From a virus, in the IMG/VR virus record IMGVR_UViG_3300036818_000127, positions 32,001-96,000 of that record: DNA of 64,000 nucleotides; one strand, 5' to 3'. The position numbers and the translations under genes were made by a program. Under the pieces are notes generated by a model that saw only the letters and a program-made list of their open reading frames with translations, was not told the DNA's origin and did no database searches. The number at the start of each line of letters is the position of its first letter. Positions within the stretch are counted from its first letter, which is position 1. Positions 17,385-60,956 of this stretch are shown here, piece after piece.

Positions 17385-20300
17385 TTACCATAAATTGGTT
17401 TGAACGGCTGCTGCTACCTTTTTAGCTTTCCGTGTCCTCTTCAAGGCATCTCGCTTAGCCCTCAGAGCTGCCCAGGGGTCCTGAGTAAGTGCTACTGGTA
17501 TGATTATCATGGGCTCAACTGATCCCTTCAATGGCTCTGTGGTAATGTCTCCTGCAAGTGGTATCTCCATATCCTCCTGCTCAGGATCGGCATCGGCTGT
17601 GATGTATTCATTCCGTGCAAGGGCTGCTTCCTCAGATGCTTTGAATTGCCTCTGGAGTTCTTCGGCCTCGGCCATCAGGTCGGCTGTGTTATTTTTCCCG
17701 CTATCAAGGGCTTCCTTGACCTGTCGGGCAAGGGCAATTGAGAAGCTACTATCGCTGTCCCCTTCATCTACTCCAAAGGAGACAAGTCCCTCTCCTGGTA
17801 GCTGGCCCTCAACCATAAAGGCAGTTTCCATCTTCCGTGACATTAATAACAAGAGACGCTGCTCCATTGTCGGGTAGACTAATATGATGACCTTGGTGTG
17901 CTTTGTCTGCTTTGGTCTATGTATCCTTCTAAAGGATTGCCGCATCTGGGATGTCGATGTCGGGACCTCAGAACAGATAATCGTGTGGAAGTCTATTAGG
18001 TCGAGACCTACTTGGACCAGGGCGCTATTGCAGATAAGAACATTGCATCCGTTCTCGACATGCTTCTTGAGTACTGCTTCCCTTCCTAATGTATTACCTG
18101 ATCTCAGGATAGCAACCTGGGGGATGTTCCCATTGCGAGGGCGGACGTGAGTCTCTATCAGGGACTTATAGCGGGGCTGGATATCATGCTCCCCTGTATT
18201 TTCGCAGTAGATGATAACCTTTCTGTCCTGCTCCAGCTCCCCTTGGATAATGTCAATTATCCTTTGCTCTTTGGGATAGATCTCTGACTCATCGAGCTTC
18301 CTAGCCGTTCCAAGAATGTAGCCTGTCTTTTTGACTGAGCAGACAGTCTCTTCAAAGGGCATATTAGGGTAGCGCCTCAAACATTGGAACCAAGAACCTA
18401 ATGCCCTCTTATCCCCTAGTACTAGCATTGCAGCTAACTCAGCAGTGATTGTACTCTCAAACGATTTATATGCTTCTTCCAGGGGTCCCGACATTGGAAT
18501 GATGTCTACCTCTTCAGAGTAGGGAGGTAAGTACGGGGCCACATCTTTAAGCTCCAGGAAGGCAGATCGTTCAAACAAAGGCGGAAGGCCATTCGGTGAG
18601 AATGCGGCCATCTCATGTTCTTCTCCACGACCGCTGGACTTTTTCTTGCTTATAGCTCCATCTCCGCCGCTATCTAAGTCATCCTTCTTTTCCTTAATCA
18701 CAGTTTTTCTGGCTCCGTACCGATCAACCCATTCCCTCATGCCATCATAAGAGAATTGCTGGCGGACATCTGGATTAATACTCCAGGCGAAGGGGAATAA
18801 TGATGAGGCATACCCATTACATAAGGTCCCCGTTAGACCTAAGTAGGATTCGCATGCTCCCATCAGGGAACGTCGGGCAAAGTCGAGGGCTGTCCCCTCC
18901 TTCCCTTGGTGGATCTCATCGCTGATCAGGAGTTTGAAGAAACCTGAATGAAACTTTCTAATATAGTCGGCCACGCTGAACCGTCGAAAGCTGGTATCCT
19001 TGACAGTCTTAGGGAGACTTCCAAGGCTGTCTGGAAGAGGGAGGGCAACTACTGCATCGCCACTTCTCAATACTGACTTAGGCTCAAAGTCCTTCCCTGT
19101 CGTGTACTGCCATAAGGGACCACCGCAGGAACCGCACCATCTCTTTTTGTGCTTTTTAGCACTGATCCACAATTCTTGTTCAGTGACGTAAGCTCCTTCA
19201 TCCTCATCCATCTCTTCTTCTATTGAAGAGAGGGCTTTTCCATTTCGCTTCTTGCGTGCTATCTGATCCTTTTTTCTTTTGTAGTCAGGATTGCTTTTCA
19301 TTAAGCGATCAATGCGTGCCTGATCCTTTACAGGAGCAAAACAGCTCGGGCAGCATGGTGTCAATCTAGGAAGTTTCGTTTCCTCGTCATGCTGTACTGC
19401 CACCTTTCCATTCGCATCTAGTGTTCGCATTGGGGAAAGCCGATATGCCAACGTCCAGGCCATACTCAACTTGGCCGTCCCATTAGGGATAATGACTAGG
19501 TGACATGGCTTCTGAGGAAGTGGGCGACCATGCAATTTTGCTTCATCATATTGCTGCCGCCAGTCCTGGAGTTCATAGTCAATCCTTTTGATAACCCTCT
19601 CAATACATCCGACTGCCGACAGTTTCTCGCCTCTCCAGAATGGATCAAATTGCCTTAGCTCTCTTGACTTCTCAGGAGTATCAATTCTCTGAACAACAAT
19701 CGCATGGACATTTGGGATAGTATCCTCTGCCTCGCGTTTCCATTTGTACGCGATGATCTCTGGGACCATCACGACAGCTGGGGAAAGCTCAATCTTCTTA
19801 GCTGTTGAGGGAAGCATGTCAGCACAGCCATTCAGGTCCATATCCCCTAAGAAGAGGGTGGATAGGGATAAGTAGGTCTTGCCAGTCGCCATCTCGGCGA
19901 TCTCACCGACCCTATTCATAGGAGCATGATCTTTCCCTCCGACCATTGCATTCACAATAGCAAGGATAAAGCCTTTCTGTCTACCGAGCGGTTGACGTAG
20001 CATCCGAGAGAAGGCGGCGTTGGCCCAGGGGACTTGAGACGGGCTGTGATAGAGCGGGGGATTGCTCTCTAACAGCTTCTCTGTTAGGGCTCCACCAAAG
20101 TTATCCAGGAAGGAACGAAGAGACATTGTTTCATGGGGAATGCTGAGCATCCCGACCATTGGCCCTGTTTCAATCCTGATAAGCTGACCGAGGGTATCAC
20201 CTTCTGTCATATCGATACACCAGAGGGATGACTCGAAGCTATCACGTTTCTCTGTGATGATATTCTCTTCATCTTCAGAGACCTTGGTCACTTTGCGCTT

Positions 20301-21383
20301 TCTTGAGAAGCCCTTTACAACTACTGTACGGCCATCTTTACCTACAAGATAGGCCCCATTGACTATTCCAGCAGCAGCCATGATGGCCCGATGCCCATCT
20401 TTAAGTGGCTGGACGGGCCGACCAGAGGCATTGCCTCTATCTTGATCAGACGGCCAGTGAAGAGCCTTATATTGCAGTTTGCTATAGACCCCATTCGCTG
20501 GAAGGCTAGCACCCTGCGGAACTGCAAGGAGTGCAGCAGCCTCTTCTGGATCGAACCTGCTCGGAGACCAATACTTGATAGCAGATCTTGCTATGGGGAT
20601 AGAATACTGTCCATATCCATCACTCCGTGAAGTCACAGCCTCGATGGGTGAAATGTCATCATGGGGGTTATCTGTTGTGCCAAGCTCAATGAGGACTTTC
20701 TCTGTAGACCGATCTGATCGCTGGCCGAATCCCTTCTGGGCAATCACGACGACCTGATCAAACATCTCAAACATGGGGACAGGCTTCTCTTTGTTCTCTA
20801 CCATCTCAGGCGTGGCAAAGGGAGTATCAGGGAACCGCAGCACCTTGATGTCGGTGTACCACTGAGAAAGATATGATGCCCCTTTCTCAACGATCCATTG
20901 TGGGACAATCCAAATCAGGACCCCGCCAGGACATAATTTCTTCGTAGTTCGTCTGAGGAAAGTCAATTCTAGCCGCTCGCCGCCGGACTCTTTGTCCCAA
21001 TCATATGGCGGGTTTACGAATGCCAACTGGAACCCGCCATCAAGAGAGTCCCCGCTAGAGATAAGAGACTGGAAGAATGATGCATGCAGGACATCATCTA
21101 GAACTTTCCTCGCAGCCTTTACCCGCGAGATATTGGGCTCGATGCCATGGGTGAGGACTTGAGGGAATGTGTGACAGTAGTGCCACATCTGCTGAATGTG
21201 CTCTCTGTATTCCTTGGCGAGAAGTTCTAAGGCTCTCCCCTTGCCTGCACATGGATCAAGAAACCTCATCTCTTGAGCATCCCCTGATGGGTAGCGGCAA
21301 CTGAGGTATTGAGCTATCATCGATATAACTGGCTCAGGGGTTGGGTAGTACAACCCTTTGACCTGTGATTCTGTCCTAGGCAT
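17385..21383 (-). CDS. adenine methyltransferase-like (DUF6094-like) / SNF2-type helicase fusion
   Basis: DPCAGKG, NPPY; TGKT, DEIH, C-terminal GLDL...RIHR. Confidence 0.8.
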   Translation of the reverse strand: MPRTESQVKGLYYPTPEPVISMIAQYLSCRYPSGDAQEMRFLDPCAGKGRALELLAKEYREHIQQMWHYCHTFPQVLTHGIEPNISRVKAARKVLDDVLHASFFQSLISSGDSLDGGFQLAFVNPPYDWDKESGGERLELTFLRRTTKKLCPGGVLIWIVPQWIVEKGASYLSQWYTDIKVLRFPDTPFATPEMVENKEKPVPMFEMFDQVVVIAQKGFGQRSDRSTEKVLIELGTTDNPHDDISPIEAVTSRSDGYGQYSIPIARSAIKYWSPSRFDPEEAAALLAVPQGASLPANGVYSKLQYKALHWPSDQDRGNASGRPVQPLKDGHRAIMAAAGIVNGAYLVGKDGRTVVVKGFSRKRKVTKVSEDEENIITEKRDSFESSLWCIDMTEGDTLGQLIRIETGPMVGMLSIPHETMSLRSFLDNFGGALTEKLLESNPPLYHSPSQVPWANAAFSRMLRQPLGRQKGFILAIVNAMVGGKDHAPMNRVGEIAEMATGKTYLSLSTLFLGDMDLNGCADMLPSTAKKIELSPAVVMVPEIIAYKWKREAEDTIPNVHAIVVQRIDTPEKSRELRQFDPFWRGEKLSAVGCIERVIKRIDYELQDWRQQYDEAKLHGRPLPQKPCHLVIIPNGTAKLSMAWTLAYRLSPMRTLDANGKVAVQHDEETKLPRLTPCCPSCFAPVKDQARIDRLMKSNPDYKRKKDQIARKKRNGKALSSIEEEMDEDEGAYVTEQELWISAKKHKKRWCGSCGGPLWQYTTGKDFEPKSVLRSGDAVVALPLPDSLGSLPKTVKDTSFRRFSVADYIRKFHSGFFKLLISDEIHQGKEGTALDFARRSLMGACESYLGLTGTLCNGYASSLFPFAWSINPDVRQQFSYDGMREWVDRYGARKTVIKEKKDDLDSGGDGAISKKKSSGRGEEHEMAAFSPNGLPPLFERSAFLELKDVAPYLPPYSEEVDIIPMSGPLEEAYKSFESTITAELAAMLVLGDKRALGSWFQCLRRYPNMPFEETVCSVKKTGYILGTARKLDESEIYPKEQRIIDIIQGELEQDRKVIIYCENTGEHDIQPRYKSLIETHVRPRNGNIPQVAILRSGNTLGREAVLKKHVENGCNVLICNSALVQVGLDLIDFHTIICSEVPTSTSQMRQSFRRIHRPKQTKHTKVIILVYPTMEQRLLLLMSRKMETAFMVEGQLPGEGLVSFGVDEGDSDSSFSIALARQVKEALDSGKNNTADLMAEAEELQRQFKASEEAALARNEYITADADPEQEDMEIPLAGDITTEPLKGSVEPMIIIPVALTQDPWAALRAKRDALKRTRKAKKVAAAVQTNLW

Positions 21384-22736: not shown

Positions 22737-23378
22737 TTAAGCCCCTTTACGGTTCGCTTGCACTCTCTTATTTAGTTCCGCTATAAGCTTTACCATATCC
22801 CCAAAAGACAATCCTTCTAAATCAACATCAGGTAAATTAAGCATCTGATGCAGCTTTTTTACGCTCGCAATCTGTTGAACCGTAGCTGGTGCTTCTGGAT
22901 CATAGGAGGGCTTGCGTTCTTGACGTTGAACAGGAGCATCGGCCAGCCGCTCGCCTTCCTCTAACTCATCGCCGCAAAACTGAGTTCCATAGCCTAGCCC
23001 GACTAGAGCCCTGCCGATGGCACCTGTCTCTGCCTTCTCTAGGTAGTCAGGGAAGCAGGCCGCATTCTCGGTTTTAGTGCCTGTTGAGCTACCTCCCTTG
23101 CCGTCGGTAACTATTGCCCTAAAGACTGCAACTCCACGGGCTTTCTTGATAACCTTGTCATAGCGGCGCTTCTCATCATTCCAGACACTAACCTCAGTCT
23201 CACACTCTTCCGAGCGATTGAGATCGAGTAACTCAGTCGTGATTGTGCCCTCTGGACATTGCTCTCTAAACCATACCAATCGCCACGCAACGGGGAGGTA
23301 GTCCTTGGGTCCCTGCTGAGACTTGAGCTGAATGATATGAGAATTAGGGTTGAACACTTTATCAATGGTAGTATTCAT
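22737..23378 (-). CDS. Sak/Rad52-like single-strand annealing protein
   Basis: YLPVAWRLVWFRE, EKAETGAIGRAL. Confidence 0.7.
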   Translation of the reverse strand: MNTTIDKVFNPNSHIIQLKSQQGPKDYLPVAWRLVWFREQCPEGTITTELLDLNRSEECETEVSVWNDEKRRYDKVIKKARGVAVFRAIVTDGKGGSSTGTKTENAACFPDYLEKAETGAIGRALVGLGYGTQFCGDELEEGERLADAPVQRQERKPSYDPEAPATVQQIASVKKLHQMLNLPDVDLEGLSFGDMVKLIAELNKRVQANRKGA

Positions 23379-23807
23379 ATCGTCCTTTCTGGAGACCCAT
23401 TCCCTTCAGGGATTGGGAGGAAAGAAACAGCCCGCAGGCTGGATCTATACTGTTCTGTTGCTAGTCCCTTGCGGGAGGGCCTTTTTAGGAGAAAGACCCA
23501 GAAAACTCTTGCTCGATTGCGAGCCGCCGTGTCTAAGCACGGGTGATATGACCCTTCGAGATGGCAATACAGGCATAGGTCCGAGACCGTCTGCTTCGGC
23601 GTGGCAGGTAGTGGTTTAGACTAGGGTGGCATCCAAACATACTTTCGCTACTTCCACTAGCACATAAGCCTGTGGGTTCGCTATTTCTTAGCCCGTATCG
23701 CTGCTGCTTGTGCGGTGAGTTGCCTCTCCGACCAAGCCCTCTAGACAGGAACTTACGTTGCGCTAGCCGTTTCGCAAGCCCCTAGGATTTATCCAGGGGT
23801 TCTTGAC
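23379..23807 (-). mobile_element. non-autonomous IS200/IS605 element carrying a standalone omega-RNA (resembles an IsrB-type scaffold)
   Basis: Minus strand begins GTCAAGAACCCCTGGATAAATCCTAGGGGCTTG and ends TTCCTCCCAATCCCTGAAGGGAATGGGTCTCCAGAAAGGA; same end as 60399-60821. Confidence 0.75.
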
Positions 23808-23867
23808 TATTTTCTGATCCTTCTCTTTGGGAGGGCTCTTTGACGAATCCTCCCGACAATATACTGC

Positions 23868-24359: not shown

Positions 24360-24388
24360 AGTATAGCATATCTTCCATAAACTGTCAA
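24360..24388 (-). promoter_or_regulatory. repeated promoter copy
   Basis: Exact 29-mer. Confidence 0.85.
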
Positions 24389-60201: not shown

Positions 60202-60411
60202 ATGAAGTGCCACATATGCCTGCGAGAGCAAGGCATCATCCCATCTCAACATGACAATGACCAGCACACCCTATGTGATGAGCATAGAAATGAGGCAGCA
60301 TCAACCTTTTATGTCGGCAAGCTTGCAAGAGAGCAGGCAGGTCGCTTATATGCAGGACATCACGATCTGAATAGGCTACTTCGATTGGTGGGTAGACAGT
60401 CAGGGACCTGA
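60202..60411 (+). CDS. small Zn-binding protein; last codons supplied by the inserted element
   Basis: CHIC...CDEH. Confidence 0.5.
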   Translation: MKCHICLREQGIIPSQHDNDQHTLCDEHRNEAASTFYVGKLAREQAGRLYAGHHDLNRLLRLVGRQSGT

Positions 60412-60821
60412 TCCCTTAAAAGGGATGGGCTTGTAGAGATGGGGGTAGTTTTTGCCCGTCTTCTCTCTAGCTTCACCTGACCAGACCCAGCCAGGGCTGT
60501 TCCTAGAAGGCTCATAGAGAGCGGGAAACAGCTATCGGGCTACGTTAGAGGCGAAATTAGGTACCATAGGATGCGAGGGCCAGTCCGATGCTCTACGGTT
60601 GCAGGTTAAACAGGTTTACGAGGGTTAGTGCCAGTGCTTGCAACGACAAACCGCTTTCTAACTTCGTCGAGGCCCCCATTACCTGGGAAACCAGTGGGGT
60701 TTAGCCGTTCCGTCATAAAACGGCTCCCCGCAAGGGGATTACTCCTAAACTAATCCAGCCTGCGGGCTACTTCTTTCCTCCCAACCACTAAAAGGGAATG
60801 GGTTTCCAGAAAGGATAACTG
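60399..60821 (+). mobile_element. non-autonomous IS200/IS605 element carrying a standalone IscB-type omega-RNA (HEARO-like)
   Basis: GTCAGG...CCTGACCAGAC closing stem, CTACGTT, GGATGC..GCCAGTCC, GGTTAAACAG, GTCGAGG..CATTACC; terminal hairpin shared with 23379-23807. Confidence 0.85.
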
Positions 60822-60956
60822 ATGAGAAAGTTTTTAGCATGGGTCATCCATAGATTATCAGATAGGTGCGGTACTTGTGACTACTACGAATGTTCATATT
60901 GTTCTGCATGCCATAATCCTGATTGCTCATCGTATAGGGAGTGCTTTTACCGATGA
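60822..60956 (+). CDS. 44-aa Cys-rich protein, not in the ORF track
   Basis: MRKFLAW...CGTC...CSYCSAC; RBS and ATGA overlap with the next gene. Confidence 0.5.
   Translation: MRKFLAWVIHRLSDRCGTCDYYECSYCSACHNPDCSSYRECFYR

Follow-up and report, generated by a model that had tools for sequence, protein, structure and literature searches.

A phage-borne omega-RNA-only derivative of ISC-type transposons inserted between the ribosome-binding site and the start codon of a phage gene

The window, by which we mean the whole stretch of 64,000 nucleotides that was analysed, comprises bases 32001-96000 of the complete, 109,417-bp record of a soil phage with direct terminal repeats. On its minus strand, a 138-aa gene is followed by a 429-bp segment without any protein gene, running from GTCAAGAACCCC at 23807 to ...CCAGAAAGGACGAT at 23379, and then by ATGA, the start of a 213-aa gene. 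The features of this locus, together with those of a sister element at 60.4 kb, are the following (window coordinates):

24360-24388, minus strand: promoter-like site with 11 of 12 consensus matches (TTGACA, 17 nt, TG-TATACT, the TG being an extension)
23808-23827, minus strand: upstream flank, the guide portion of the omega-RNA, read directly (its 20-nt length is an assumption taken from DtIsrB); contains the native Shine-Dalgarno (SD) sequence AGAAGGA at 23818-23824
23379-23807, minus strand: whole non-autonomous element, 429 bp, without a protein gene, from GTCA... to ...GACGAT
23775-23807, minus strand: right end in the sense of the transposase (TnpA), read directly, with TEM TGAC (GTCA, 23804-23807) and a hairpin at 23779-23799
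23775-23778, minus strand: right-end 'guide' tetranucleotide CAAG (CTTG), read directly
23543-23807, minus strand: IsrB-type omega-RNA scaffold core (HEARO-like), aligned end to end with Rfam RF02033, model positions 1-211
23451-23542, minus strand: 3' stem-loops outside the Rfam model, defined by alignment, compensatory changes and comparison with the 60.4-kb element
23443-23451, minus strand: chimera junction, placed by alignment with C497/C234 and with the IscB-type omega-only elements L007/L009
23428-23441, minus strand: terminator-like hairpin CAGCC-TGCG-GGCTG, then TTTCTTTCC
23396-23417 (within 23392-23417), minus strand: left-end hairpin CCCAATCCC/GGGAATGGG, from folding
23392-23395, minus strand: left-end tetranucleotide TCTC (GAGA in the TnpA sense), from a covariation table and manual reading
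23383-23390, minus strand: SD-like AGAAAGGA, 4 nt 5' of the ATG
23375-23378, minus strand: ATGA, at once the TnpA target (TCAT on the plus strand), a TAM of the IsrB type and the codon at which the 213-aa gene starts
22737-23378, minus strand: 213-aa phage gene, start ATGA
60399-60821, plus strand: sister element, IscB-type and omega-RNA-only, with a kindred end; ATGA at 60822-60825

The limits of the element can be fixed to the base. Homology with six copies in a Ktedonobacteraceae metagenome-assembled genome (MAG) starts precisely at G23807 (GTCAAG...), and the 3' boundary, 23379, is the point at which an end shared with the 60.4-kb element stops before a variable flank. Imperfect subterminal hairpins lie near both ends (23396-23417 and 23779-23799); there are no terminal inverted repeats and no target duplication, the flanks AAAATA and ATGAAT having no repeat in common. 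The upstream flank terminates in AGAAGGATCAGAAAATA, with the end of the 138-aa gene further upstream, and the reconstructed empty junction of the phage locus reads ...CAGAAAATA|ATGAATACT... (AAAATA|ATGA). An initial annotation made from the letters alone had placed a mobile omega-RNA-only element at exactly 23379-23807, and the boundaries, the MAG copies and a match to the HEARO RNA family bear this out; the siting that it described, exactly between the native SD (AGAAGGA/AAAATA) and the ATGA start, can be read directly. A single-protein viral scan for an empty-site allele of the phage locus returned no relative, and a profile scan gave homologues just 53-65% identical, too distant for a nucleotide-level empty site. 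It is thus confirmed that the segment 23379-23807 derives from ISC-type IS200/IS605 transposons and is non-autonomous, with the omega-RNA gene and both ends retained and the nuclease gene lost.

The gene behind the element had been labelled a recombinase, a label that we could not sustain: its 213-aa product has no Pfam-A, NCBIfam or PDB match, and its PHROG matches lack an assigned function. Many phages carry homologues of it (precomputed PF27148); homologues at 70-75% identity exist, and 74-75% is reached in Ktedonobacteraceae MAGs. The homologues in other phages lack an insert, and their ATG is preceded by an SD at 6-10 nt; in the present phage the native SD has been shifted 429 bp away, and AGAAAGGA stands at the tip of the element, at the short spacing of 4 nt from the ATG. 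The motif of the proposed replacement ribosome-binding site is present at 23390-23383, and it may have a role in translation; other RNA-only copies either retain AGAAAGGA or have GGAGG in its place, which suggests selection for an SD. Further along the same strand, 17385-21383 encodes a 1332-aa ORF with a DUF6094 methyltransferase-like N-terminus and a helicase C-terminal domain.

Against RF02033, the core at 23543-23807 scores 33.9 bits (E 6.8e-5), below the gathering score of 83, and the 60.4-kb copy scores 102.9 bits. The phage RNA resembles HEARO in aligning over the full model, in its GUCA...P1 start and in having RRXRR genes adjacent in its relatives; it differs in its score and in that the phage copy itself has no such gene. 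The Ktedonobacteraceae MAG holds 24 HEARO matches, and its low-scoring ones (38-58 bits, also sub-threshold) are the copies of the 23.4-kb scaffold, at least six in number and 82-90% identical. Scaffolds that are 82% (L038/L039) and 67-68% (L040/L041) identical adjoin RRXRR-only IsrB ORFs downstream. In an alignment of nine IsrB-type scaffolds, to whose consensus and structure the phage copy conforms, 28 of 76 consensus pairs show changes on both sides, although the nine are related by descent and the compensatory pairs are therefore support and not a formal test. A hairpin insertion in the phage scaffold recurs in C423, the closest MAG copy (90% identical, cut by a contig end), and the stem-loops at 23451-23542 are closed by a CCCGCAAGGG hairpin common to both scaffold types. 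Because the scaffold recurs before IsrB ORFs and its pairing is conserved, the low Rfam score points to divergence, as opposed to chance or decay, and the phage RNA probably belongs to a divergent, IsrB-linked HEARO subfamily. The different, IsrB-type core recognized by the initial annotation accords with these MAG copies that precede RRXRR-only ORFs.

All-against-all comparison of the MAG copies sorted them into full-length and short forms. Full-length copies of the 60.4-kb type encode a 475-aa protein with RRXRR and HNH (NCBIfam IscB NF040563, 453.8 bits), and those of the 23.4-kb type encode 385-aa proteins with RRXRR only and no HNH, that is, IsrB. The short forms (370-490 bp) retain scaffold and far end and have no ORF; at least eight are IscB-type and three IsrB-type, and they exceed the full-length IscB copies. 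Of each type, the phage carries one RNA-only element. Multiple MAG copies have unrelated flanks, and the IsrB element C145 has an orthologous empty site, ...AGGAGAAGATAA|ATGAGT, in a relative (the 6-phosphogluconolactonase site). The idea of a separate, new family of guide-only mini-transposons does not survive these comparisons: the elements are deletion derivatives of ISC transposons, and the MAG also contains their full-length parents, which match them in scaffold and end.

The full-length IsrB ORF extends to the end of the transposon, and its stop codon is the TGA of the target (L028/L029) or TG|A (L033/L038). In L038/L039 and L040/L041 of MAG G001, it is the target (ATGA, or TG|A) that supplies the stop of the IsrB ORF, which creates a stop/start overlap with housekeeping genes.

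The end that the two phage elements have in common, noted initially as about 60 bp, is 89% identical over 62-63 nt (23379-23443, minus strand, against 60754-60818, plus strand; E 1.4e-17), and these are its only two copies in the 109,417-bp genome. Outside the phage, one Ktedonobacteraceae MAG has five copies of it and 20 soil metagenome contigs contain it too, both after IscB genes and directly after omega-RNAs. The IsrB-type homology of the 23.4-kb element stops after AACAGAACAG (about 23451) and an IscB-type end follows from (T)ATAGATCCAGCC, in the order terminator-like hairpin, TTTCTTTCC, hairpin CCCAATCCC/GGGAATGGG, TCTC and AGAAAGGACGAT; in full-length elements the terminator-like hairpin lies directly 3' of the IscB stop codon. 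The IsrB-type elements of the MAG terminate in ...GGGGTCTCCTAGGCCGACAAG|ATGA or ...GGGGTATCCACAGGTCGAGTTTG|ATGA. The phage element is thus a chimera, an IsrB-type scaffold having been joined to the end, about 65 bp long, of IscB-type elements. Such hybrids could arise by nested insertion followed by deletion, the first step of which is represented by L154:1869-2440 (WNEZ01131897.1), an IsrB-type RNA-only element at an ATGA 12 nt upstream of IscB-type terminal hairpins.

That scaffolds can be swapped was part of the initial annotation, and a kindred end with both scaffold types does exist in other genomes: in G033, the IsrB-like scaffolds of L174, L183 and L186 have ends of matching architecture, the SD-like motif included. 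The combination of the same end with a different scaffold is therefore real and recurrent, and reflects recombination inside one transposon superfamily. A strict dichotomy of type-1 and type-2 ends was dropped, as these IsrB-like scaffolds bear SD-carrying ends.

The sister element at 60399-60821 is 89% identical to the metagenome copy L167 and interrupts an ATGA stop/start overlap (...AGA CA|A TGA). ORF 60202-60411 now terminates three codons into this element, and a 44-aa Cys-rich ORF begins at 60822.

Both phage elements are flanked by ATGA. In the MAG the flanks are ATGA (11), ATGG (7), GTGA (4) and ATGT (1), metagenome copies mostly adjoin ATGG, and in the two relatives G002 and G033, ATGA flanks 11 of 13 copies. 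Taken as RTGR, the flank accounts for 22 of 23 elements in the MAG, 2/2 in the phage, 14/14 distinct metagenome elements and 11/13 in the two relatives, about 49 of 52 overall. Tabulating the tetranucleotide downstream of the shared end, and comparing its bearers with isrB loci, as had been suggested from the outset, revealed both an RTGR bias and omega-RNA similarity in relatives. HEARO elements have been reported adjoining ATGA or GTGA. The ATGA rule of the initial annotation holds as a description of the flank. It cannot stand as a new rule, since target and TAM had been published (PMC4810608; PMC9581776) and the family-wide sequence is RTGR: the targets given for ISC elements are N|ATGA, GT|GA and GT|GG (PMC4810608), and the TAMs of IsrB are NTGA, NTG and NTGG (PMC9581776).

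What appears to set the choice within RTGR is the tetranucleotide immediately 5' of the end hairpin, taken in the sense of the transposase from a manually corrected table. GGGA goes with ATGG (CCAT); GAGA, GATA and GAAA go with ATGA (TCAT); GAAG and GATG go with GTGA (TCAC). The tetranucleotide tracks the flank in 24 of 26 elements (the exceptions are L021 and L028), and covariation is seen at positions 1, 2 and 4 and not at position 3; one GGGA family is found at ATGA as well, as a G-T wobble would allow. The right end follows the matching rule, CAAG with TGAC. In IS608, a guide tetranucleotide 5' of the hairpin reportedly pairs with the cleavage tetranucleotide, the combinations being AAAG/TTAC and GAAT/TCAA. 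The present ends are similar in that the 4 nt by each hairpin covary with the flanking 4-mer and a distance of 17-19 nt separates the hairpin from the cleavage site on the left, as is said of IS608; they differ in that the targets are TCAT, CCAT and TCAC, not TTAC, and in that the rule is here read from sequence alone. The TCTC/GAGA at 23392-23395 matches such IS608-type recognition and would specify the ATGA flank, and the family-wide target RTGR (ATGA, ATGG, GTGA) is probably set by the transposon-end tetranucleotide. The 23.4-kb end and the commonest ATGG-type end differ by a single base of the tetranucleotide, so that a natural data set is at hand in which one base change at a transposon end accompanies a change of target (ATGG against ATGA), giving a readable targeting rule for the ISC lineage.

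Kapitonov's insertion inside GTGA, a boundary of the GT|GA type, was considered and is disfavoured; it would alter only the first base of the rebuilt start codon. Three points speak for N|ATGA: the first base covaries with the tetranucleotide of the end, GTCA suits the cleavage motif of the right end, and the empty orthologue has ATGA.

Many of these targets are start codons. In the MAG, 10 of the 11 ATGA-flanked elements adjoin an ATG with which a long ORF (93-504 aa) starts, and Pfam matches are present in 8 of these 10 ORFs. About six are true gene starts by Pfam, the domain being matched from model position 1-2 onward and starting within 6-23 residues of the ATG; the supported starts are those of a MiaB-like protein, Asd, 6-phosphogluconolactonase, Xaa-Pro peptidase and DAG kinase, with an M16 peptidase less tightly placed. 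In G002 and G033, gene starts underlie only 4 of 11 ATGA-flanked elements, among them L186, precisely on the GAPDH start codon (MKIGINGFGRIGR), and L183, where the gene for a signal-peptide protein starts. For IscB-type copies, the share on start codons is 3 of 11 in the MAG, and in metagenomes it is about 9 of 14. Set against the background of the phage genome, where about 64 of 1371 ATGA sites resemble gene starts, the enrichment is large; with 10/11 in the MAG and 4/11 in G002/G033, it is not a rule. Of the start-codon targeting that the initial annotation proposed, the strong association in relatives is upheld; a targeting mechanism is not, as many related copies stand on ATGR sites that open no gene.

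The tendency is probably best explained by ATGA specificity combined with retention in transcribed, non-disruptive positions: insertions inside genes would be lost, and ATGA would be frequent where genes start and where a stop overlaps a start. The guide of IscB/IsrB elements is located just beyond the end of the transposon, on the upstream side of the scaffold (Meers 2023 preprint, 10.1101/2023.03.14.532601). With the guide outside the element, the RNA needs read-through transcription, and external transcription has been argued from orientation bias (Meers et al., 10.1101/2023.03.14.532601). At the phage locus, the candidate promoter at 24360-24388 could drive the 138-aa gene and then guide and omega-RNA, and the terminator-like hairpin at 23428-23441 may lower read-through into the 213-aa gene. 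Elements precisely between the SD and the ATG of housekeeping genes (GAPDH, asd, pgl, miaB-like) suggest how an external guide gets transcribed without killing the gene on which the element has landed.

Several aspects of this system are already published, namely elements reduced to an omega-RNA, the site that they target and their dependence on external transcription. Omega-RNAs delimited by the right end, omega-RNA-encoding PATEs and transcription that originates outside the element have been described (Meers 2023, 10.1101/2023.03.14.532601), as have standalone omega-RNAs (Altae-Tran 2021, as cited in PMC9581776). ISC1 and ISC2, the IsrB- and IscB-encoding IS200/IS605 family (Kapitonov et al. 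2016, PMC4810608), have the same 5'-GTCA start, subterminal hairpins and absence of target duplication, insert in the same N|ATGA, GT|GA and GT|GG fashion, are mobilised in trans by Y1 TnpA and are plentiful in Ktedonobacter; the phage element, in contrast, has no iscB or isrB, is of IsrB type at its RNA end and of IscB type at its far end, and is phage-borne. With PATE-like minimal IS200/IS605 elements and standalone omega-RNAs it shares the lack of a protein, the two ends and an omega-RNA reliant on a nuclease encoded elsewhere; however, the PATEs of Geobacillus are described beside insertion sequences that mostly encode TnpB, whereas the phage element is of HEARO/IsrB type, phage-borne and start-codon docked, with an SD-like tip. 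New are the phage location, the chimeric build, the readable end/target code of the lineage and start-codon docking with an SD or stop/start coupling. Guide-RNA-only OMEGA elements thus invade phage genomes, and shared transposons tie a complete 109-kb soil phage to Ktedonobacteraceae.

The phage genome has no Y1 TnpA and no RRXRR (IscB/IsrB) protein, so movement and use of the guide would need host enzymes; the Ktedonobacteraceae MAG has two Y1 TnpA genes. In all likelihood, the 23.4-kb segment is a PATE-like, non-autonomous ISC-type IS200/IS605 element, in which an IsrB-type omega-RNA gene lies between TnpA-recognisable ends and is recombinant with an IscB-type left end. Such an element would have entered the phage in a Ktedonobacteraceae host by the action of the host Y1 TnpA, in trans, on single-stranded DNA. 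It would have integrated immediately 5' of ATGA because the GAGA by its left-end hairpin pairs with TCAT, and would have come to lie between a phage gene's SD and its ATG, a position in which read-through from an upstream promoter would transcribe flank (the guide) and scaffold. The omega-RNA could then load a host IsrB in trans and nick element-free sites that combine the guide match with the ATGA TAM, which would favour retention of the element or homing into co-infecting relatives, and AGAAAGGA at its tip would restore translation of the displaced gene. Several observations count against this reading: the scans gave no empty-site allele of the phage locus, the HEARO score falls far short of the gathering threshold, the terminator-like hairpin could end transcription ahead of the 213-aa gene, the SD spacing is short, and, in exact searches of IMG/VR, neither the shared end nor motifs of the IsrB-type scaffold core were found in any other contig.

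Could the segment instead be an inert relic, a dead and tolerated fragment, immobile and with an inactive RNA, whose downstream gene was spared by chance? It encodes neither a nuclease nor a transposase, its ends come from two lineages, the phage has only two copies, and the many relatives on non-gene ATGR sites imply that such elements persist without obvious function. Yet both end hairpins, both pairings of tetranucleotide and cleavage site and the RNA pairs have stayed intact, G033 repeatedly shows chimeric architectures of a similar kind, and the excess of omega-only over full-length IscB copies in the MAG suggests that these forms are still moving; we therefore consider a relic unlikely. 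Domestication by the phage, either as a 5' leader regulating the 213-aa gene or as a decoy or hijacker RNA for host IsrB/IscB, would suit a 5'-UTR position with a terminator-like hairpin and an SD, but is highly improbable, since the insert is at this locus in no related phage examined, its sequence is simply that of a host transposon family and IscB and IsrB are not, to our knowledge, defence proteins.

An extension of the transposon reading, which we offer as a tentative and rather doubtful proposal, is that the lineage may have evolved a form of 'polite docking'. ATGA would serve as start codon, as TAM and as the stop of full-length IsrB, the tips of IscB-type and RNA-only forms would carry an SD, and the RNA-only form in the phage would act as a nuclease-free homing drive that uses host IsrB or IscB to nick co-infecting, insert-free genomes.

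Some metagenome contigs with sister elements share a phage gene, and such insertions may therefore be common in this phage group. In three soil metagenome contigs (L167, L150 and L166), which have a gene in common with about 101.1-101.6 kb of the phage genome, IscB-type ends adjoin the ATGA with which a small HTH gene starts. L167 is RNA-only, L150 and L166 are apparently full-length, in a view limited by contig ends, and L166 has a second scaffold just downstream.
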